A DNA stretch of 64,000 nt from Patescibacteria group bacterium (GTDB taxonomy: Bacteria > Patescibacteriota > Patescibacteriia > UBA9934 > GWF2-40-263), in NCBI GenBank assembly GCA_004297215.1, contig SCUM01000001.1, positions 143,456-207,455 of the forward strand, in the 5' to 3' direction. Every line of letters starts with the position of its first letter. The first letter of the stretch is position 1. Of the stretch, positions 1,359 through 11,081 are shown piece after piece. The notes beneath the pieces are model-generated. The model searched no databases. It worked only from the letters and a program-made list of their open reading frames with translations, and was not told the origin of the DNA. The translations under genes were made by a program, and so were the position numbers.

Positions 1359-1410
1359 TTCCGGGGTAGTCTCCGACCCGACGGGTCGTAGACCCGGAGG
1401 GCTCAGCGGC
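1359..1410 (+). repeat. 52-nt repeat copy 1: tRNA-Asn 5'-end mimic (TTCCGGGGTA..GCTCAGCGGC) split by a 32-nt hairpin insert
   Basis: Near-identical to 1665-1716 with 1 mismatch. Its outer parts match tRNA-Asn positions -5 to +19 at 1742-1765. Confidence 0.6.
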
Positions 1411-1746: not shown

Positions 1747-1821
1747 TCCGGGGTAGCTCAGCGGCAGAGCAGTGGACTGTTAATCCATTGGTCGTGGGTT
1801 CGAATCCCACCCCCGGAGCCA
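1747..1821 (+). tRNA. tRNA-Asn (anticodon GTT), CCA encoded
   Basis: Manual cloverleaf: acceptor TCCGGGG/CCCCGGA; D-arm GCTC-AGCGGC-AGAGC; anticodon stem GTGGA/TCCAT with loop CTGTTAA; T-arm GTGGG-TTCGAAT-CCCAC; discriminator G then CCA. Confidence 0.9.
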
Positions 1822-1954
1822 TGAGCGACTGTGTCTGGCGACCCAGACACGGTCGGTCAATAGAGCATCAAGAAATTGGTGTGCTGCTGACCGATAGAGG
1901 CGACTTCACCGTAAGTAGGGAGAAGGTCATTTAAAAGGAGGTGCCGGAACTTTC

Positions 1955-2545
1955 TTGAATATGGCCAGAAAATGTTTCATCTCGTTTAAGACAGAGGACA
2001 TCGCTTACAAGGAAGCGATACAAAATGACCCCAACATAGACATGATTGATAAGTCTCTGAATGAGGCTATAGATTCAGACGACGAGGATTACATTATGCG
2101 CGCGATCCGTGACCAGTACCTGTCGGACTCCACGGTGACGATTCACTTGATTGGGAACAAAAGTTCCGAGGTCCTCGGTTACGAGGAACAGAAATTCATC
2201 AAGCGAGAACTCCAGGCTTCTCTGTATAACGGAGAGAATAACGCAAGAAGTGGTATTCTCGGCGTCGTGCTTCCGTCCATGTACGAAAGTATCTTTAAGG
2301 GGCCTTTCGAATGTACCACCTGTCGTGAGAGTCATAATTGGGTGATCGTCGGGGACGGGACGACGGTTTCGGAGTTCCATCGCAACTACTACATACAACA
2401 CGACAAGTGCCATCACGCGGAGGATGATCGCTATTGCGTGCTTGTGAAGTGGGACGACTTTCGTCTCAATCCCAACACGTATATCGAACAGGCGTTTCTG
2501 AAGCGAGATCACGCCATCGCGGAAAAGGTGAAGGTGCGCCCCTAA
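1955..2545 (+). CDS. ThsB-like TIR-domain protein (DUF1863-type TIR). The ATG at 1961 may be the true start.
   Basis: N-terminal RKCFISFKTEDIAY resembles the (K)RVFFSFHYQD motif of Thoeris ThsB. The central VTIHLIGNKSSEVLGYEEQKFIKREL...GILGV resembles ThsB VLIGSQTFNRRWCRYEI...GNKIIGI. SD-like AAGGAGGTG lies upstream. Confidence 0.6.
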   Translation: MNMARKCFISFKTEDIAYKEAIQNDPNIDMIDKSLNEAIDSDDEDYIMRAIRDQYLSDSTVTIHLIGNKSSEVLGYEEQKFIKRELQASLYNGENNARSGILGVVLPSMYESIFKGPFECTTCRESHNWVIVGDGTTVSEFHRNYYIQHDKCHHAEDDRYCVLVKWDDFRLNPNTYIEQAFLKRDHAIAEKVKVRP

Positions 2546-2550
2546 TCAAT

Positions 2551-3039
2551 ATGTTCAGACTAAAGAAACGAGAAGCTATGGCAGTTCCCGGCAATACCGA
2601 ACAAGAACCTGATTCCGGGTACGCACGGCTAGAACAGCAAATCAGGTGGTATGACACGAAGTCGCAAAGCGCTCAGCATTATTACAAATGGGCGAAGATC
2701 CTGGAATTCAGTTTTGCGGGACTCATTCCTTTTTTAGCGAGCACATCTTCGTGCATCACTGCTGCATTAGGAATTCTGATTATCGTCCTCGAGGGTTTGC
2801 AACACGTAAACCAATGGTCGCACAATTGGATCACATATCGCTCCACATGCGAGGCACTCCGACATGAGAAGTACCTGTACATTGGCCGTTCAGTTGTTTA
2901 TGCGGGAATGAGCGATGAGGAGGCGAAAAAAGTGCTCGTTGAACGAGTTGAATCTTTGATTTCAACCGAGCACGCAAAATGGATTTCCCAGCAAGATCTG
3001 ACAACAAAAGCCCCCCACAGTGCGAAGAAAGAAGAATAA
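2551..3039 (+). CDS. DUF4231/SLATT-family two-TM protein, a putative membrane effector
   Basis: LEQQIRWYDTKSQSAQHYYKWAKILEFSFAGLIPFLAS...LGILIIVLEGLQHVNQWSHNWITYRSTCEALRHEKYLY is a W..Y...Y..W + 2TM + EKYLY architecture typical of SLATT/DUF4231. The start is 6 nt after the TIR gene stop. Confidence 0.55.
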   Translation: MFRLKKREAMAVPGNTEQEPDSGYARLEQQIRWYDTKSQSAQHYYKWAKILEFSFAGLIPFLASTSSCITAALGILIIVLEGLQHVNQWSHNWITYRSTCEALRHEKYLYIGRSVVYAGMSDEEAKKVLVERVESLISTEHAKWISQQDLTTKAPHSAKKEE

Positions 3040-3064
3040 AGCGTCTGCCCTTGAGTCCTGCTAC

Positions 3065-3250
3065 CTAGACCGCCGGTTCCACCGTTCCATCAGAGATCCT
3101 CATGGTTGATTTGATGTGAGACAGAAGATCTCGTTTCTCCTCCCGGGTCCCTTCCTTCAGAATATATTTTGCGCACGCGTACACATTGATGTCCGGCATG
3201 ATCTCGGCAATCTTTGCGGTCGTGGCGTGGTCGCCAAGGCTGGAGATCAT
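3065..3250 (-). CDS. Small hypothetical ORF (61 aa) between the SLATT gene and mod. It may be non-coding.
   Basis: ORF only. Weak RBS, no recognisable motif. Confidence 0.2.
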   Translation of the reverse strand: MISSLGDHATTAKIAEIMPDINVYACAKYILKEGTREEKRDLLSHIKSTMRISDGTVEPAV

Positions 3251-3332
3251 TTTTTTCTACCCTTTTTACCCACAATCAGGCCTCTCTTTTTTACCTTAAC
3301 TACTGTAAACTTAGGGGGTTCGAAAAACCGCT

Positions 3333-4994
3333 ATGTCTAGACACCAGAAGTACAAAAAATGGGACAAGGAGAAGCTGATCTCGGAGATCTGCCGACTTGA
3401 GGACTGCAAGAAATACGGTTTGGTTTGGGAGGATAAGCCTGAGGATGTGGCGGAGCAATGCAGGGAGCAGTTACCGGTTTTAGAGGAGGTGCCAGAAAGA
3501 GCGCATCTCAAAGATGGATTGCTTGGGACCAATATTTTGATAGAAGGAGATAATTACCACGCACTTTCCGTTTTAAATTACACGCATAAGGGCGCGATTG
3601 ATGTCGTTTATATTGATCCGCCCTATAACACAGGAGCTAGGGACTGGAAATATAACAATGACTACGTCGATATTAACGACGTTTTCAGGCACAGCAAGTG
3701 GCTCTCGATGATGCAGAGACGGCTCCTTCTCTCGAAAGATTTATTAAAGGATGATGGCGTACTAATCGTGACGATCGATAAGCATGAGCAGCCGAGAATC
3801 GTAATTTTACTTGAGGAGCTTTTTCCGGATAAGGAAATAGTCACAGTCGTCATTGAGCACAACCCCAAGGGCTCACCGACACGGCACTTTACGTATACAA
3901 ATGAGTTTGCAATTTTCGTAGTACCAAAGGCGACGAATGTGATAGGAAAAGATCCGACCGAAAAAGTGGACACGCGCAATCTTCGCAGAGCTGGTCGTGC
4001 GTCGACTCGAAAAGAAAGGCCGACGATGTTTTATCCAATTTACGTAAGGAGTGGAAAGGTTATAAGGGTTGGTGATACGCCGGACGCCTCATTTCATCCT
4101 AAAAAAAGAAATGTTGTACAAAAAAATGGTGAAATCGCTATTTGGCCCATCGATGACGATGGTCGAGAGAGGCGGTGGCACTTTGGACTGGATTCGATCA
4201 ATGATTATCTAGACCGCATTGAGGTTCGGCAGTCCAAGGGAGAAATACAATTATTCGTGACGGCTTCGCCCGGGCGATACAAGACTGTATGGCGAGGCGG
4301 CGAATTCGACGCTGGTAAATATGGAACCTCCCTGGTCAGGGACCTGATCGGCGTCGAATTTCCTTACCCAAAATCTGTATTTGCGACGGCTAAGTGTCTC
4401 GAGACCGTTGTACACGGGCGGCCCGATGCTTTAATTTTGGACTATTTTGCCGGCTCTGGAACCACGGGGCACGCGACGCTTTACCTCAACAAAAAGTTTG
4501 GTGGTAACCGGCGATTCATACTCTGCACTAACAACGAAAACGACATAGCAGAGGATATTACCTTTCCGCGACTGATTAAAGTAATTGACGGCCACAAGGA
4601 CCATAAGGATACAACAGGCATACCGGTCAATCTGCGCTACTTCAAAACGACCTTCGTAAAAAAATCAGACGTTTCAGATGATACCCGCCGTGAGCTTGTG
4701 AAACGTTCGATGGAGATGATCTGCGTGAAGGAGGGCACCTTCCAAAAAATTGCAGACAATAAGCAGTTCAAGATTTATCGCGACGTGAATCATGTCACCG
4801 GCATCCTCTACAATCTGGATGCAATATCCGAATTCAAGAAGAAGATTTCGGACCTTGGTCTCTCGGCAAGCATCTACGTATTTTCGTTAACGACGGATAC
4901 GTACGATGCCGATTTCGTAGATTTGGAAGTCAAATACACGCTTTGTCCGATCCCGGAAAGCATCCTCGAGGTCTATCGCAAACTGTTCGCGTGA
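3333..4994 (+). CDS. mod: Type III restriction-modification system methyltransferase (Mod, beta-class N6-adenine/N4-cytosine MTase)
   Basis: DPPY motif (VVYIDPPYNTGARDW) lies N-terminal to the FxGxG SAM motif (LDYFAGSGTTGHA), with a variable region between them. This is the beta-class order typical of Mod. Confidence 0.85.
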   Translation: MSRHQKYKKWDKEKLISEICRLEDCKKYGLVWEDKPEDVAEQCREQLPVLEEVPERAHLKDGLLGTNILIEGDNYHALSVLNYTHKGAIDVVYIDPPYNTGARDWKYNNDYVDINDVFRHSKWLSMMQRRLLLSKDLLKDDGVLIVTIDKHEQPRIVILLEELFPDKEIVTVVIEHNPKGSPTRHFTYTNEFAIFVVPKATNVIGKDPTEKVDTRNLRRAGRASTRKERPTMFYPIYVRSGKVIRVGDTPDASFHPKKRNVVQKNGEIAIWPIDDDGRERRWHFGLDSINDYLDRIEVRQSKGEIQLFVTASPGRYKTVWRGGEFDAGKYGTSLVRDLIGVEFPYPKSVFATAKCLETVVHGRPDALILDYFAGSGTTGHATLYLNKKFGGNRRFILCTNNENDIAEDITFPRLIKVIDGHKDHKDTTGIPVNLRYFKTTFVKKSDVSDDTRRELVKRSMEMICVKEGTFQKIADNKQFKIYRDVNHVTGILYNLDAISEFKKKISDLGLSASIYVFSLTTDTYDADFVDLEVKYTLCPIPESILEVYRKLFA

Positions 4995-4995
4995 T

Positions 4996-7278
4996 ATGAA
5001 ACTCAAGGATTATCAGAAAATCGCGGTAGACAAGCTGCTCTCCATAAGCAAGAAGTTGTTGCAGAAAGAGGGTATGCGCATATGCGTCCTGAAGGCGCCG
5101 ACTGGCTCGGGAAAGACCATCATGGTCGCCGACTTCCTTGATCAGCTCGCCCATGCTCACATCGCCGGCGCATATTCTTTTATATGGATCAGCGGTAACA
5201 AACTTCATGAACAGAGCCGGGCAAAGCTTGAAGGATATCTTTCCGAGAGTCGCTATTCGTTCTCGTATCTCGATGAGGCCAGCGCTGGAAGCTTTTCGGA
5301 AAACGAGATTGTCTTTGTGAACTGGCATAGCCTCACGAGGCAGGACAATGAGACCGGCGAGTATACGAACGTCTTCATGAAGGAGAATGAGCAGGACCGT
5401 GACCTGCCGACCTTCATTCGTAACACCAAGGCGGAGGGGCGCGAGGTCATCCTCATCGTGGACGAGAGCCATTATCATTATTGGAGCAAAAAGTCGCAGG
5501 AGCTGGTCCAGTCCGTCATCGGTCCAAAGCTCATCCTTGAAGTCTCAGCGACGCCGACCAACCAGCCGACCCCGGACGAGCTTTCGAGCGGAGACGCTGG
5601 GTACGTCGCAGTGAAGTACGATGACGTGGTCGCGGAAGGAATGATCAAGAATGAGATTGTCATCAACAAGGATGTCGGTAAGTTCAGCGACATCCAGCGA
5701 TCCGCGGACGAGGTCGTCATTGACGCCGCGATAGAGAAGCAGAAGGAGCTCAAGAAACGGTTCGTCAAGATTGATGTCGACATCAATCCGCTCGTGCTCA
5801 TCCAGTTGCCGAGCGAGAGCCAGACGACGTCCGTGCTCGACAAGACCAAGCTTGAATTCGTCGAGGCGTACCTGAAGAAAAAGCACGGCGTCACTGTCGA
5901 GAACGGCAGGCTTGCCGTGTGGCTTTCGAATCGCAAGGACAACGTCGTGAATGTCGAGATGCCGAACGCCAAGGTCGATGTCATGATCTTCAAGCAGGCA
6001 ATCGCGCTCGGTTGGGATTGCCCGAGGGCGCAGATCCTTGTGATGTTTCGTGAGATTCAGAGCCAGGTGTTCGAGATCCAGACGGTCGGGCGCGTGCTCC
6101 GCATGCCCGAAGCGAAGCACTATGAGGATGAGGAGCTCAATCGAGCGTTCGTCTACACGAACCTGCCAGCAATCACCATCGCTGCTGACGACGCGAGTCA
6201 GCGTTTCTTTCAGGTGCATCCAGCGCATCGCATCGAAGGGTACGAGGCGGTAAAGCTTCCGTCGGTCTATATCGGGAGGACCGACTTCGGCGACCTTACG
6301 CTCTCTTTCCGAAAGCTCTTCATCGAGGAGGCGAACAAGCGTTGTGGCATCGGGAAAGACGACATCATGGACAAGGCCTTCAAGAAGGCCGACAAATTGA
6401 TGGAGCTGTATCCTGAGGAACTGACCCATCCCGTGATCTCGGACGCGGTCGTCGGCAATCTCGACGAGGCAAGGGAGATTGCCGGTGAGAAGGCAGAGTT
6501 CGCCATCCCCGAGGACGAGCTGAAGTATCGCTTCGAACAGTTTGCCAAGATCGCGTCGCTGCCGTATGCGCCGGTGCGCTCGCATACCAAGGTGCAGCAG
6601 GCTATCTACGACTGGTTCGACGGTTACCTCGGATACGAGAAAAGGAGCCGAATCGAAATTCAGCGAGCCGTCGTTTGTTCCGAGGCGAATCAGAAGCTAT
6701 TCGCAGAGATTATCGAGGCCGCAAAGGCTCGCTTCGCCGATATCCGCCGATCTGAACTCGACGGTAAGAAAAGTGAGCAGGCTTACGAATGGGACGTGCA
6801 GGCGATTGAATACTTCAACGAGCGTCACGAACGAATCGCTGTATCGAATTACGCCATGGATAAGTGTTATGTGCTCACAGATCGCTCCAAGCCGGAGAAG
6901 GATTTTGAGCTCACAGTCGCAGCAGCCAAGGGGGTTTTGTGGTGGTACAAGAACGGTGTGAGCAAGCGGGATTATTTTGCGGTGCCCTATGATGACCCGA
7001 AGACGGGTGCTCGTAGGGCCTTCTACCTGGATTATGTTGTCGTCATGAAGGATGGCTCGGTTAGTATCTTCGACACCAAGTCTGGGGTCACGGCGGACAG
7101 CGCCGAAACCGGCGCGAAGTCCGATGCGCTTCAGGCCTACATCAAGAGAAATACGACGAAGAGTAAGAGGATTTGTGGCGGAATCGTCGTTAGTCGTCAA
7201 GATGGGACTTTTGTTTTCGTAGGATCGAAATATACTTCGGATCCGAGAGATAAGGGTTGGGTGCGGTTAGAACTGTAG
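4996..7278 (+). CDS. res: Type III restriction enzyme Res subunit (SF2 helicase with C-terminal nuclease region)
   Basis: Walker A LKAPTGSGKT, DExH ILIVDESHY, motif III EVSATP, motif VI QTVGRVLR. Start is 2 nt after the mod stop (translationally coupled). Confidence 0.85.
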   Translation: MKLKDYQKIAVDKLLSISKKLLQKEGMRICVLKAPTGSGKTIMVADFLDQLAHAHIAGAYSFIWISGNKLHEQSRAKLEGYLSESRYSFSYLDEASAGSFSENEIVFVNWHSLTRQDNETGEYTNVFMKENEQDRDLPTFIRNTKAEGREVILIVDESHYHYWSKKSQELVQSVIGPKLILEVSATPTNQPTPDELSSGDAGYVAVKYDDVVAEGMIKNEIVINKDVGKFSDIQRSADEVVIDAAIEKQKELKKRFVKIDVDINPLVLIQLPSESQTTSVLDKTKLEFVEAYLKKKHGVTVENGRLAVWLSNRKDNVVNVEMPNAKVDVMIFKQAIALGWDCPRAQILVMFREIQSQVFEIQTVGRVLRMPEAKHYEDEELNRAFVYTNLPAITIAADDASQRFFQVHPAHRIEGYEAVKLPSVYIGRTDFGDLTLSFRKLFIEEANKRCGIGKDDIMDKAFKKADKLMELYPEELTHPVISDAVVGNLDEAREIAGEKAEFAIPEDELKYRFEQFAKIASLPYAPVRSHTKVQQAIYDWFDGYLGYEKRSRIEIQRAVVCSEANQKLFAEIIEAAKARFADIRRSELDGKKSEQAYEWDVQAIEYFNERHERIAVSNYAMDKCYVLTDRSKPEKDFELTVAAAKGVLWWYKNGVSKRDYFAVPYDDPKTGARRAFYLDYVVVMKDGSVSIFDTKSGVTADSAETGAKSDALQAYIKRNTTKSKRICGGIVVSRQDGTFVFVGSKYTSDPRDKGWVRLEL

Positions 7279-7396
7279 CTCAGAACGCTGTCTTTACAGC
7301 CTATAATCTCTGTAACCCACGTGCGTCGTTCGGCCCGACGGAATACCCCTGAAAGGTTGCCCAAAATTGAGGTCTGTACCCGTACGTCGAGCCATG

Positions 7397-7426
7397 AAAA
7401 AAGAACAGACTCATCTGTTCTTTTTT
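7397..7426. terminator. Bidirectional rho-independent terminator
   Basis: AAAAAAGAACAGA-CTCA-TCTGTTCTTTTTT: 13-bp perfect stem flanked by an A-run and a T-run. Confidence 0.6.
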
Positions 7427-7564
7427 CATATCTGGGTGGGATTCGGACGGGGAGGGTTTGGGAACCCTGCCGGCAGGCAGGCGTGAGGTTCCCGCCTCTG
7501 CCGGGGGAGGCCCGCGGAGGGGTGGAAACCACTCTGCTCTGCGAACGCTTGTGAGCGCGTGCAA

Positions 7565-7582
7565 AATTCCACCCCGGAGCCA
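7565..7582 (+). repeat. Imperfect direct repeat of the tRNA-Asn 3' end (attR-like)
   Basis: 17/18 match to 1803-1821, with further weak similarity in the downstream 8 nt. Confidence 0.45.
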
Positions 7583-7676
7583 ACGACTTCTCAGCCTTCG
7601 CTAGGATTTGTTCTTTGCGTGGAGCTGTCTGTAATGGGATTTGAGCTGGTATACTGTTTTTAATCAACCTTCCGCT

Positions 7677-8615
7677 ATGAACATCGTGAAATTGTTCAAT
7701 CGCCTCGTCGAGTCCTATCTGTTCGTCGTCGTGATAGCCTTAGTGGCCGGGTTGGCATTTTCGGAGCGCATTTCCATCCTCACGGCGTACACGACGGTAT
7801 TCCTGCAAATCATTTTTTTCCTTTCAAGCCTGAAGCTGGATCCGAAGGCGATAGTGAAAGAGGCGAAGGACGTCAAACTCATCCTGCTGGTGAACGCCTT
7901 CAAGCTCCTCATCCTTCCCGCCGTCGTCTATCTTGTCGCGGCGCGCCTGTATCCATCGATGGCCGTTCCCCTGTTGCTGCTTTCCGCGGTGCCCAGCGGG
8001 ATGACGACGCCCCTGCTCGTGGAGGTGGTCGGGGGGAAACAGGGGTTGGCGCTCGTCCTCACCGTCACCAGTTCTTTGATCGCGCCGCTCACGATCCCGT
8101 TGGTCATCGGGCATTTCGCCGGCACGGCCGTGACGGTAAACGCCTTCGAGATGTTCCAGAAGCTCGTGCAGGTCATCGTCATTCCATTCCTGATCGCGCA
8201 GGCGGTGCGCGCGTTCCTCGACCGCCGGCTTTCGGCGACCTATTTCACGTTCAAGCCGATTTCCATCGTCATCCTCGGACTGCTGATTGCCGGCGCGGTG
8301 GCAAAGCAGGCCTCCGTCATCCTGTCGCATGTCGACATGACCATGTTGATCCTGTTGTGCGTCCTTTTCCTTTTCGTCGCCCTGATGCTTTCCATCGGGT
8401 ACGCCATGGCATACTGGCGCGATTGCTCGGATCGGCTGACGGTCGCCGTCAGCACGGCGTTCATGAATTTCTCGCTCGCCATCTTCCTCGCGGACGCGTT
8501 CTTTCCGGACCCGAACGTCTTGCTCGCGTCCGTCCTCGTCATCTTTCCCTGGGCGATGATGCTGTTGCCCTTCAAGCACGTCGTTCACAGGTTCATCTGC
8601 AAGACGCCGGCGTGA
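7677..8615 (+). CDS. Bile acid:sodium symporter (BASS/SBF) family transporter
   Basis: About 9 TM helices, BASS-like size and hydropathy pattern. ATG at 7677, in frame with the track ORF starting at 7641. Confidence 0.6.
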   Translation: MNIVKLFNRLVESYLFVVVIALVAGLAFSERISILTAYTTVFLQIIFFLSSLKLDPKAIVKEAKDVKLILLVNAFKLLILPAVVYLVAARLYPSMAVPLLLLSAVPSGMTTPLLVEVVGGKQGLALVLTVTSSLIAPLTIPLVIGHFAGTAVTVNAFEMFQKLVQVIVIPFLIAQAVRAFLDRRLSATYFTFKPISIVILGLLIAGAVAKQASVILSHVDMTMLILLCVLFLFVALMLSIGYAMAYWRDCSDRLTVAVSTAFMNFSLAIFLADAFFPDPNVLLASVLVIFPWAMMLLPFKHVVHRFICKTPA

Positions 8616-8745
8616 GGACGTTTTCAGGATAGGGAGTAAAGGCGACCTTCGTGCGCACAGATAGCGATTCTAACGTCGTCCACGACGCGGGCAAAATTAA
8701 CATGACCGTCTACGGGCGACCGTGTCGAGTGAGGCAGGAGTCCGA

Positions 8746-9363
8746 TTAGCACCCCATGTCGCCGTCGATGGGGCAGGCCTTGGAGGCGGGGTTGGCCTTG
8801 GGCGTGCCGGGGTCGGGGCCGATGGTGATGTAGTCGGCGGCCTTGGTGAGCTTCCACTCGTGCTCGTGGTTCCAGCCGGTCCAGTCGTGCTTCCATTCGT
8901 TCCAGCCGATGCCCAGGTGCTTCACGAAGATCCCGCGCTCGGCGAGCATCTTGCCCACCTTGCGGCCGGTCATGCAGGGGATGGAGTAGCAGTAGACGAT
9001 GACGTCCTTCTCCTTCGGCAACGCGGCGAAGGCCTCGGTGATGCGATCGACCTCGTCGTAGGCGGAGGTGTCCTTGTCCTTGTACGCGGGGATGCTGACG
9101 GCGCCTGTGACGTGGCCGAGCGCGTATTCTTCGGCGCTGCGCAGGTCCACGAGCACGAACGAGTCGTCGCCCTTGTCCATCATCTTGCGCAGGCCATGCG
9201 GGCTCACGTGCACGGCGGATTCGGTGCGGTAGAAGTCGGCGATCAGCTCCGCGTCGCTCGCGTGGCGCGCGGGGAGCAGGGAAACGATGCCCCAGGCGGA
9301 ACCGGCGCCCGCGGCGGCGCCCAGGAGCACGGAGACGACGATGGTGAGGATGGCCTTGTTCAT
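8746..9363 (-). CDS. Rhodanese-domain (sulfurtransferase-like) protein with N-terminal signal/TM
   Basis: Rhodanese fold signature: LVDLRSAEEYALGHVTGAVSIP ... VIVYCYSIPCMTGRK (active-site Cys loop). Confidence 0.7.
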   Translation of the reverse strand: MNKAILTIVVSVLLGAAAGAGSAWGIVSLLPARHASDAELIADFYRTESAVHVSPHGLRKMMDKGDDSFVLVDLRSAEEYALGHVTGAVSIPAYKDKDTSAYDEVDRITEAFAALPKEKDVIVYCYSIPCMTGRKVGKMLAERGIFVKHLGIGWNEWKHDWTGWNHEHEWKLTKAADYITIGPDPGTPKANPASKACPIDGDMGC

Positions 9364-9495
9364 ACGGGCTTTCGGCGATTAGGCGGCTCCAGCATACGCC
9401 GTGAGCCCAAAAATCGCCACAGGGAGGAGGTCGGGTCGTGGATGTTGAATAGGTGAAGAGGGTGTATACTTAGAAAAATCATTAACCTTTGGCGT

Positions 9496-9765
9496 ATGAC
9501 CGTCTCTCCAAAGCGTCTCGCGCTTACGTTTGGCCTGTTCGCGGGCCTCGTGCACCTCGTCTGGTCCGTGCTCGTGGCCGTGGGCCTCGCACAGGGGCTC
9601 GTGGACTTCCTCTATGCGGCGCACTTCATGTCGCAGATGCCCTCGAAGGTCGACCCGTTCTCGCTTGGGAACGCCGCGCTGCTCGTGATCTTCAGCTCCG
9701 CGGTCGGCTACGCGGCCGGATGGGTGGTCGCGACCATCTGGAACAAGACCGCAAACGCGAAGTGA
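9496..9765 (+). CDS. Small two-TM membrane protein, hypothetical
   Basis: ORF with two hydrophobic helices. No motif. Confidence 0.35.
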   Translation: MTVSPKRLALTFGLFAGLVHLVWSVLVAVGLAQGLVDFLYAAHFMSQMPSKVDPFSLGNAALLVIFSSAVGYAAGWVVATIWNKTANAK

Positions 9766-9851
9766 CGCGGATCGTCGGGCGCGCGCCGTGAGGGCGCGGA
9801 TTTTACGTTTCGACTTCCGCACGGTATCGTTAGGCCTGAATCGATGATGGT

Positions 9852-11081
9852 ATGTACGGATACATCGCCCTAAAGCTCCTGTCGGCCGTGGTCGGCGCGA
9901 TCGCCCTGGTCCTCATCCTGAGGGGGCTGTTGCTCATCCGCAAGCGCTCCGAACCGGGGACGCGCCTGGCCATCGACGCCGGGGTCGCGGGTCTCGCGCT
10001 TGCCGCCGTCGCCTACGTGGTCGCGAGCGTCCCGCTCCCGCTGAATTTCGCCATGCCGCCCACCATGCACGCGATGACCATGGACCGGAAGCCGGCCTCG
10101 CTGCCGATCCCCGCCATCCTCGACTTCTTGTCCCACCGGGACCGATTCGCGAAGGTGGCCGACGTCGGGAGGGATCCCAACGACGTTCCGGCCCCGGTCG
10201 GGGCACGGGCGCCGCAGACGGTGAAGATCGACGTGCGCGCCAAGGAGGTGATCTCCGAGGTCGCGCCCGGGATCTTCTTCAACTACTGGACGTACGGCGG
10301 CCAGGTGCCCGGGCCCATGTACCGCGTGCGCGTGGGCGACACGGTCGAGACGACCCTTGCCAACGACCCGACGAGCCTGCACCCGCACAACATCGACCTC
10401 CATGCCGTGACCGGTCCCGGCGGCGGCGCGTCGGTCACCAACGTGCAGCCCGGGGAGACCAAGGCGTTCCGGTGGCTCGCCAAGCATCCGGGGCTGTACG
10501 AGTACCACTGCGCCATGCCCAACGTGAGCACGCACAATTCCCACGGCCAGTACGGGCTCATCCTCGTGGAACCCGAGGGCGGATTCGCACCGGTCGACAA
10601 GGAGTTTTACCTGATGCAGGGGGAGCTCTACACCATGGGCGGGATCGGGAAGAAGGGGCTCATGGCGTTTGACACGCAGGGGCTCATCGACGGGACGCCC
10701 AGCTACGTCACCTTCAACGGCAAGGTGGAGCAAACCCCGCGCATGAAAGCGCGCGTAGGCGACCGCATCCGCCTGTTCGTGGGCAACGGCGGGGTAAACC
10801 TGGTCTCGTCGTTCCACGTGATCGGGGAGGTGTTCGACACGGTGTATCCCGAAGCGGCGATCGGCGAGGGTTCCGCCGTCTTCAAGAACGTGCAGACCAC
10901 GGCCGTGCTACCCGGAGGCGCCGCGATCGTGGAGTTCACGGTCGACGTCCCTGGGAAATACCTGATGGTCGACCACGCGCTCGCGCGCATGAACAAGGGC
11001 GCCTGGGCCGTGCTCGAGGTGGAGGGCGAGGCGAACCCCGCCGTATTCACCGCCCTGGAACCGGAGACTGCGGCCCAGTAA
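9852..11081 (+). CDS. nirK: Copper-containing nitrite reductase NirK (multicopper oxidase type)
   Basis: HNIDLHAVTGPGGGA and YEYHCAMPNVSTHNSHGQYGLILVEP match NirK type-1/type-2 Cu ligand motifs. N-terminal TM anchor. Confidence 0.85.
   Translation: MYGYIALKLLSAVVGAIALVLILRGLLLIRKRSEPGTRLAIDAGVAGLALAAVAYVVASVPLPLNFAMPPTMHAMTMDRKPASLPIPAILDFLSHRDRFAKVADVGRDPNDVPAPVGARAPQTVKIDVRAKEVISEVAPGIFFNYWTYGGQVPGPMYRVRVGDTVETTLANDPTSLHPHNIDLHAVTGPGGGASVTNVQPGETKAFRWLAKHPGLYEYHCAMPNVSTHNSHGQYGLILVEPEGGFAPVDKEFYLMQGELYTMGGIGKKGLMAFDTQGLIDGTPSYVTFNGKVEQTPRMKARVGDRIRLFVGNGGVNLVSSFHVIGEVFDTVYPEAAIGEGSAVFKNVQTTAVLPGGAAIVEFTVDVPGKYLMVDHALARMNKGAWAVLEVEGEANPAVFTALEPETAAQ

Follow-up and report, generated by a model that had tools for sequence, protein, structure and literature searches.

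A foreign two-system defence island downstream of tRNA-Asn in a Patescibacteria genome, with a tRNA 3'-end repeat that is probably not its attachment site

The high-pathogenicity island of Yersinia sits at tRNA-Asn genes. Here we analysed a tRNA-Asn locus of a Patescibacteria group bacterium in a stretch of 64,000 nucleotides (assembly GCA_004297215.1, contig SCUM01000001.1, positions 143,456 to 207,455 of the forward strand; hereafter the window, whose own numbering is used below), where low-GC DNA carrying two defence systems directly follows the tRNA gene. Islands of the type collected in the Islander database of tRNA-targeted islands (PMC4383910) resemble this locus in that foreign DNA of deviant composition begins right where an intact tRNA gene ends, part of the tRNA 3' end recurs further downstream, and the cargo genes are accessory. 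Unlike in those islands, no integrase gene lies inside the island here, the attR-like fragment is also present in a relative that has no cargo and carries the tRNA upstream flank, and the best-fitting cargo junction is only a 9-bp repeat. The integrase-poor hotspots and defence islands described in other bacteria (Oliveira et al. 2017, PMC5635113; Hochhauser et al. 2023, PMC10121019) share with the locus the clustering of unrelated defence systems, a recurrent insertion point by a tRNA gene, modular content and the lack of a mobility gene. On the other hand, the host here is a small-genome Patescibacteria metagenome-assembled genome (MAG), and the hotspot is known from a handful of metagenome contigs. 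In bacteria of the candidate phyla radiation (CPR), which have small genomes, defences and mobile elements are generally considered scarce. The locus is a tRNA-flank defence island of a familiar kind, and its cargo systems come from known families.

The tRNA-Asn(GTT) gene (1747-1821, + strand; called by ARAGORN, Rfam tRNA 73.5 bits) is intact and stands at the left border of the island. With the rest of the window as the host reference (about 64% GC), the GC content over 1822-7582 was 50.7%, compared to 64.0% in the remaining window; equal-sized windows elsewhere in the 64 kb gave 61.3-68.3%, with none below 61.3%. The tetranucleotide distance of the post-tRNA DNA from the host profile reached z-scores of up to 15, and GC at third codon positions (GC3) was 0.50-0.71 in the island genes versus 0.77 and 0.84 in the flanking genes for an LRR lipoprotein and a bile-acid/Na+ symporter family (SBF) protein, respectively. 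The lower-GC DNA directly after the tRNA gene is foreign. An earlier note on this DNA had described the region as lower in GC than the rest of the window, and the comparison of GC and k-mer content that it proposed gave a clear discontinuity. Its extent of about 5.8 kb, ending at 7582, held for the presence of a low-GC island 3' of the tRNA but not for the right end: the low-GC stretch stops near 7430, the DNA beyond is host-like (69% GC over 7441-7560, 69.7% over 7446-7564), and the cargo itself measures about 5.57 kb, with a GC content of 50.3%.

The cargo holds two pairs of defence genes, all on the + strand. The first pair encodes a ThsB-like TIR protein of 194 aa (1961-2545; Pfam ThsB_TIR, PF08937, 36.3 bits; PADLOC ThsB, 54.9 bits; gene call in L004) and, starting 32 nt after it on the same strand, a SLATT_1/DUF4231 membrane effector of 153 aa (2578-3039; NCBIfam SLATT_1, 101 bits; Pfam DUF4231, 66 bits). 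The second pair encodes the methyltransferase Mod of a Type III restriction-modification (R-M) system, 553 aa (3333-4994; Pfam N6_N4_Mtase, PF01555, 78 bits; PADLOC MTase_III, 232.5 bits), and its restriction/helicase subunit Res, 760 aa (4996-7278; Pfam ResIII, PF04851, 62 bits; PADLOC REase_III, 57.8 bits), the latter being 100% identical to the NCBI protein EPO34_00735. Operons of TIR and SLATT genes have been named type VII Thoeris, with canonical cADPR as the signal (bioRxiv 10.64898/2025.12.03.692087, a preprint of December 2025). The pair in the window has the same arrangement, a two-gene operon in which a ThsB-like TIR gene is followed by that of a small SLATT membrane protein (ThsH); it is type VII Thoeris-like by its domain content. 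The Mod-Res pair is likewise assigned by domain content to the Type III R-M systems, and it resembles EcoP15I in the mod-then-res order with a 1-nt gap, the N6/N4 methyltransferase and the helicase-type ResIII domain of Res. The island should thus supply two separate anti-phage defences, one by restriction of unmethylated DNA and the other by TIR signalling to a membrane effector, and the earlier description of the cargo as defence only (TIR-SLATT and Type III R-M) was borne out by these domain matches.

The other features of the cargo are a strong 13-bp hairpin at its left end, directly after the tRNA (1822-1860, + strand; -28.2 kcal/mol, z = -5.6), and a 61-aa open reading frame (ORF) divergent from mod (3065-3250, - strand), which had no Pfam, NCBIfam or PADLOC match. 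The AlphaFold2 model of the 61-aa protein, made from the single sequence, has three helices and a beta-hairpin (pLDDT 68); we considered whether it could be an excisionase, and the model had no PDB fold match at E<1. Searches of the cargo against plasmids and phages by blastn gave only short matches at the level of conserved motifs, of about 110-250 nt per aligned piece. We also observed a weak DNA similarity (66-69%) between part of the TIR gene (1970-2220) and hypothetical genes of the Streptococcus prophages Javan235 and Javan616.

The earlier note had placed the far end of the island at a copy of the tRNA-Asn 3' end. This copy, AATTCCACCCCGGAGCCA at 7565-7582 (+ strand), aligns to AATCCCACCCCCGGAGCCA at 1803-1821 with 17 identities, 1 mismatch and 1 gap, and its identity to the tRNA begins in the T-loop. 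When only the last 19 nt of the tRNA were used as the anchor, the observed score was 14, and the best score elsewhere was 11 among 22,390 host windows on both strands (about 56 kb of host DNA); because none of these host windows reaches the observed score, the repeat is not a chance match, and the claimed copy is real and the best match in host DNA. A broader scan of the whole window with a 180-nt query (tRNA plus flanks) gave a score of 26, compared to 27 and 25 for chance matches at about 19.3 kb and about 26.1 kb, both of which were dismissed on inspection. The similarity that had been said to continue for 8 nt downstream of the repeat amounted to a shared CGACT and was not significant.

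To place this repeat in context, we used as comparators three metagenome contigs, L013, L014 and L015, which were found by scanning for the exact 75-nt tRNA and carry an identical copy of the gene. L014 stops 2 nt past the tRNA. L015 has no cargo: a hairpin terminator comes immediately after the tRNA, then TATTTCAG-GTGGGATTCG and a GC-rich hairpin stretch of about 100 nt, and beyond these 20 nt of the tRNA 3' end are repeated exactly (GAATCCCACCCCCGGAGCCA) ahead of a second terminator of the same design. In L013, the tRNA is followed by the terminator, the GTGGGATTCG element and then a gene for an IS200-like Y1 transposase, and no repeat of the tRNA 3' end was found within 1.85 kb.

The same order of elements was found in the window, but to the right of the cargo. 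There, 7389-7582 consists of GAGCCA, a terminator hairpin, CATATCTGG-GTGGGATTCG, GC-rich hairpins and the 18-nt repeat, of which 7395-7582 form a module of about 190 nt. The terminator (7395-7430) is a 16-bp hairpin with an A-run and a T-run, as in a two-way terminator (-19.7 kcal/mol, z = -5.5), and by collinear alignment it is the positional homologue of the tRNA-Asn terminator of L013 and L015: the first 58 nt (7389-7446) are collinear with the bases directly after the tRNA in L015 with a score of 29, compared to 17.3 +/- 2.3 and a maximum of 28 in 500 shuffles (L013 and L015, which are strongly similar to each other, scored 93 over the same stretch). GTGGGATTCG (7436-7445, + strand) is an inverted copy of the tRNA T-arm, stands at the same relative position in L013 and L015, and occurs in the window only here and, as the reverse complement, in the tRNA. 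It is followed by the GC-rich hairpin region (7446-7534, + strand), and the repeat ends 144 nt away from GTGGGATTCG in L015 and 146 nt away in the window. The GC content of the module interior tracks that of the host in the three organisms (module/host: 0.697/0.641 in the window, 0.624/0.555 in L015, 0.473/0.445 in L013). Since a homologue of the tRNA terminator lies on the right of the cargo, the cargo sits between the tRNA and the tRNA's own terminator. Scans of a viral collection with the tRNA 3' half and with a pattern of the tRNA end plus GTGGGATTCG gave no matches. As a further observation, L013 and L015 have an identical internal hairpin, ACGCAAACTGCTTTGCGT.

The 36 nt ahead of the repeat (7535-7570, + strand) resemble 1707-1750, a segment that runs from the tail of a 63-nt repeat upstream of the tRNA (repeat B, described below) across the spacer into the first bases of the tRNA; the local alignment score was 26, which none of 2000 shuffles and a single one of 2071 real windows attained. 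Read from left to right, the right-hand element is therefore composed of upstream flank, TCC and ACCCCGGAGCCA. The presence of an upstream-flank copy before the repeat points to a collapsed second tRNA copy rather than to an attR, and the 18-nt repeat indeed looks like a second copy of tRNA-Asn that has its own upstream flank and may have lost its interior through a deletion between ATTCC and ATCCC. Another CPR population (contigs of the L016 type) does have tRNA-Asn genes in tandem, each preceded by a copy of the upstream flank. A different repeat fits the cargo edge better than the tRNA 3'-end fragment does, namely the 9-bp direct repeat GAGCCATGA, which has only two copies in the window, both on the + strand. 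The left copy (1816-1824) consists of the last 6 nt of the tRNA and the next 3 nt; the right copy (7389-7397), our proposed right junction of the cargo, sits directly before the terminator hairpin and aligns with the GGAGCCA-plus-terminator arrangement of L015.

Putting these observations together, we favour, with a confidence a little above even, the explanation that a recent foreign cargo was placed on an older scar of the tRNA locus. The older layer would be the resident module downstream of tRNA-Asn, made up of the tRNA hairpin terminator, GTGGGATTCG, the GC-rich hairpins and the stub of a second tRNA-Asn copy; relatives with the identical tRNA have this module too. The recent layer would be the 5.57-kb cargo (about 1825-7388) with TIR-SLATT, the 61-aa ORF and Mod-Res, which would have entered exactly between the CCA end of the tRNA and its terminator and become flanked by GAGCCATGA. 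For the order of events and the route of recombination, which we infer, several options may be considered: a site-specific enzyme may have acted in trans on a short core; taken-up DNA may have been anchored by recombination at the conserved tRNA gene, whose sequence does not vary among organisms ranging from 44 to 64% GC, and joined on the far side through short homology; or the whole 1822-7582 unit may have arrived via recombination between tandem tRNA copies. Strains of the other CPR population part ways immediately past the tRNA-Asn 3' end, and this junction is therefore a recurrent insertion point.

Because L015 has the same repeat and no cargo, 7565-7582 is likely an older scar of the locus and not the attachment site of the cargo, and the assignment of the tRNA and 7565-7582 as attL and attR in the earlier note is probably wrong. 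What survives of that reading is the foreign low-GC defence DNA directly 3' of tRNA-Asn. Its attR is not supported in the form given there, in view of the equivalent copy in L015 at 144 nt after the motif, the host-like GC (69.7%) between repeat and cargo, and the tRNA upstream flank that precedes the repeat. In the same way, a decayed and fixed island remains plausible, though as two layers, recent cargo and older scar.

Several points weigh against the explanation by two layers. No close relative sharing the SBF flank was found, so there is no true empty site for this lineage: the contigs with the identical tRNA do have the terminator and module without cargo, but they are not close relatives and lack the SBF flank. 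They also differ widely in GC (44-55%) and in neighbouring genes, and can be compared with the window at the tRNA locus only. Between the window and L015, the interior of the module does not align. Two Logan contigs of run SRR8426588 equal the window exactly at 1792-7696 and 7667-10860, and the first of them, which contains the island, is unbroken through 7389 and 7582 and ends at 7696, supporting neither boundary. Finally, the whole of 1822-7582 could have come as one unit by the tandem-tRNA recombination mentioned above, and the 9-bp repeat may just as well represent the short core of a site-specific event.

The strongest competitor, which we nevertheless consider unlikely, is a single island spanning 1822-7582 that was inserted by a tyrosine integrase, with the tRNA as attL, 7565-7582 as attR and the integrase gene deleted later; the 165-nt structure of L015 would then be a further-decayed remnant of the same island family. 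The 3'-end repeat is real and specific, and it starts in the T-loop, as would be expected for integrases targeting the tRNA T-loop, which Williams reportedly described in 2002. The exact repeat of L015 is in the same register, and displaced tRNA fragments commonly mark island ends (PMC9897764). Against a single island stand the host-like GC of the last ~140 nt before the repeat, the homologue of the tRNA terminator on the far side of the cargo, the copy of the tRNA upstream flank ahead of the repeat, which is unexpected for an attR, and the occurrence of the repeat in L015 without cargo. In addition, no integrase or remnant of one was found. Pfam gave no recombinase domain in any ORF and no match at E<=10 in the stop-to-stop pieces of 7240-7700, 1800-1990 and 3030-3340, the first of which covers the right non-coding stretch where the earlier note had suggested looking for integrase remnants, and tblastn with a Xer probe found no tyrosine recombinase across the 64 kb; the statement that no integrase or excisionase remains is thus upheld to the extent of these searches. 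One weak match of the Xer probe lies in an ORF that resembles 6-phosphogluconate dehydrogenase (assigned by eye).

Relatives of the Mod-Res cassette also bear on this alternative. The closest Res proteins are 82% and 78% identical at the amino acid level, and their contigs carry Mod-Res without TIR-SLATT, the DNA homology to the window being confined to 3347-3830 and 4426-7261, i.e. both genes minus the central part of mod. In L007-L009, the DNA around the cassette has about 70% GC and the terminator of a tRNA-Asp gene lies no more than 8 nt from the start of the cassette, and no repeat of the tRNA-Asp 3' end was found around it (L007). The earlier note had named, as an outcome that would count against its reading, related genomes with the same genes and no repeat; this was found in part, as Mod-Res lies beside tRNA-Asp without a repeat, but these relatives have no TIR-SLATT. 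Since Mod-Res occurs without TIR-SLATT and by tRNA-Asp, the cargo is modular, with Mod-Res travelling without TIR-SLATT elsewhere, and a related R-M cassette has landed independently by another tRNA without an att-like repeat. We also observed that the middle third of mod (3830-4426) is unalignable at the DNA level to the closest relatives, whereas both ends of mod and the Res gene are 69-77% identical. Unlike in the nearest relatives, the central target-recognition region of Mod is thus different here, which is consistent with a swapped target-recognition domain and probably a different methylation specificity. In addition, an ORF with a LAGLIDADG domain runs into the start of tRNA-Asp in L007 (708-1447) and also in L008 and L009; the two loci are parallel in having a gene of homing-endonuclease type upstream of the tRNA and an R-M cassette downstream of it (tRNA-Asp in L007, tRNA-Asn in the window).

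A more doubtful alternative is that the post-tRNA module is functional, either as a structured RNA or as a DNA recombination site that would recruit or anchor incoming DNA; double-strand breaks made by the neighbouring GIY-YIG nuclease would possibly help, and the tRNA-Asn flank would then be a capture site independent of integrases. The end motifs and the spacing of the module (144 versus 146 nt) are conserved though the interior has diverged, and the fold of both versions is closed by a long stem (z = -2.7 for 7432-7582; z = -4.9 for the L015 counterpart, 6403-6555 on the minus strand), the C-to-T change in the window keeping the pairing as G-U. The fold of this ~150-nt element was observed in both organisms as a closing stem of 9-10 bp around two or three hairpins. 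Frames of GIY-YIG type directly adjoin tRNA-Asn not only in the window but also in L016-L023 and, as judged by eye, in L015, and partial tRNA duplications are found on both sides of the tRNA. Yet there are only two full examples and one partial example of the module, L013 has no 3'-end repeat in the stretch covered, and there is no evidence of the GIY-YIG protein cutting the locus. Rfam gave no family at E<=1 for the module or for the 63-nt repeats, and two sequences are too few for covariation. In its broadest form, the tRNA-Asn flank in these Patescibacteria would be an integrase-independent capture site composed of the abutting GIY-YIG nuclease, partial tRNA copies on both sides and the conserved ~150-nt element, with its inverted T-arm at the start and its mimic of the tRNA 3' end at the close; defence cassettes of unrelated donors with the same tRNA would be inserted there more readily, either induced by breaks or anchored by homology; to this proposal, to its list of parts and to its mode of insertion alike, we give slightly less credence still.

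Nine-bp target duplications are known from the IS4/IS10/Tn5 families. A DDE-type transposition, in which the 9-bp repeat would be a target-site duplication and the cargo a defective transposon, is very improbable, for although an exact 9-bp direct repeat, a common target-duplication length, flanks the low-GC block, terminal inverted repeats are missing from the cargo ends (score 11 versus a shuffle mean of 15.3) and neither a transposase domain nor a remnant of one was found in the cargo by Pfam on ORFs and stop-to-stop pieces.

Upstream of the tRNA, two direct repeats of 63 nt (family D1; + strand) share 92% identity, repeat A (1358-1420) and repeat B (1664-1726). In each of them, the tRNA-Asn 5' end (ATTCCGGGGTAG) is copied first, followed by a palindromic insert of 31 nt and then by the D-arm-like GCTCAGCGGC. 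The 31-nt insert, TCTCCGACCCGACGGGTCGTAGACCCGGAGG, occurs only twice in the window (1370-1400 and 1676-1706). Between the repeats lies the gene for a small GIY-YIG nuclease of 84 aa (1421-1675, + strand; Pfam GIY-YIG, 48 bits), whose GC3 of 0.55 is atypical for the host and whose stop codon lies within the tRNA-5'-end copy of repeat B. In L015, the upstream frame ends alike inside the real tRNA (...IPG, then stop); it runs off the contig end and was recognized as GIY-YIG by eye only.

The same flank has counterparts in a low-GC CPR population (L016-L023). There, a GIY-YIG gene of 62% identity lies just upstream of tRNA-Asn, and the tRNA gene has an insertion of 31/32 nt in its T-arm (L016, 8331-8362), the reverse complement of which is identical to TCTCCGACCCGACGGGTCGTAGACCCGGAGG at 27/31 positions in a hand alignment; one of the differences is a compensatory change from G-C to C-G in a small hairpin. 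The resulting tRNA-Asn gene of 104 nt matched the Rfam tRNA family with 48 bits and was missed by ARAGORN. Possibly the 31-nt insert is a very small element, mobile or similar to an intron, that is associated with the GIY-YIG gene. In L016 (8465-8775), and also in L019 and L021-L023, tRNA-Asn is present in a second, tandem copy that shares the upstream flank and is interrupted in the anticodon loop by a group I intron (Rfam, 84.8 bits). Two variants, which separate right behind the first tRNA-Asn, were observed in this population, with the intron-bearing copy in one and a DDE transposase region in the other.

On the right, the island is followed by the host SBF gene (7677-8615, + strand; Pfam SBF; GC3 0.84), whose product is 100% identical to NCBI EPO34_00740 from a Patescibacteria MAG. 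A scan of genome contigs with SBF gave only relatives of 46-48% identity, with no tRNA-Asn nearby, and the closest SBF homologues (82% and 62%) showed no synteny beyond the SBF gene. Exact-protein look-ups of SBF, the GIY-YIG protein and a 409-aa ORF had no matches on record, and for the rhodanese the only match was the adjoining Logan contig, from the same sample. No empty-site variant was visible in the SRR8426588 sample. The left break of the contig with the island fits a branch after the tRNA end, of the kind that other organisms with the same tRNA would cause; its right break lies 10 nt ahead of the start codon of SBF. The two Logan contigs overlap by exactly 30 nt (7667-7696), ending 20 nt into the SBF gene, which implies a branch of the assembly graph at 7666/7667 or 7696/7697, perhaps from a SNP or from a strain variant ahead of SBF.

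The interest of the locus lies mainly in its host group, in the scarred tRNA-Asn locus with its conserved post-tRNA module and in the association with a GIY-YIG gene. It also calls for caution in reading such loci, as a repeat of a tRNA end near a break in composition need not be the attachment site of the adjacent cargo. If the module and the GIY-YIG nuclease were active in insertion, the locus would offer a testable route for gene capture without an integrase. As a clean example of a two-system defence island beside a tRNA gene and without a recombinase of its own, the locus shows that CPR genomes use the same hotspot logic as well-studied bacteria.

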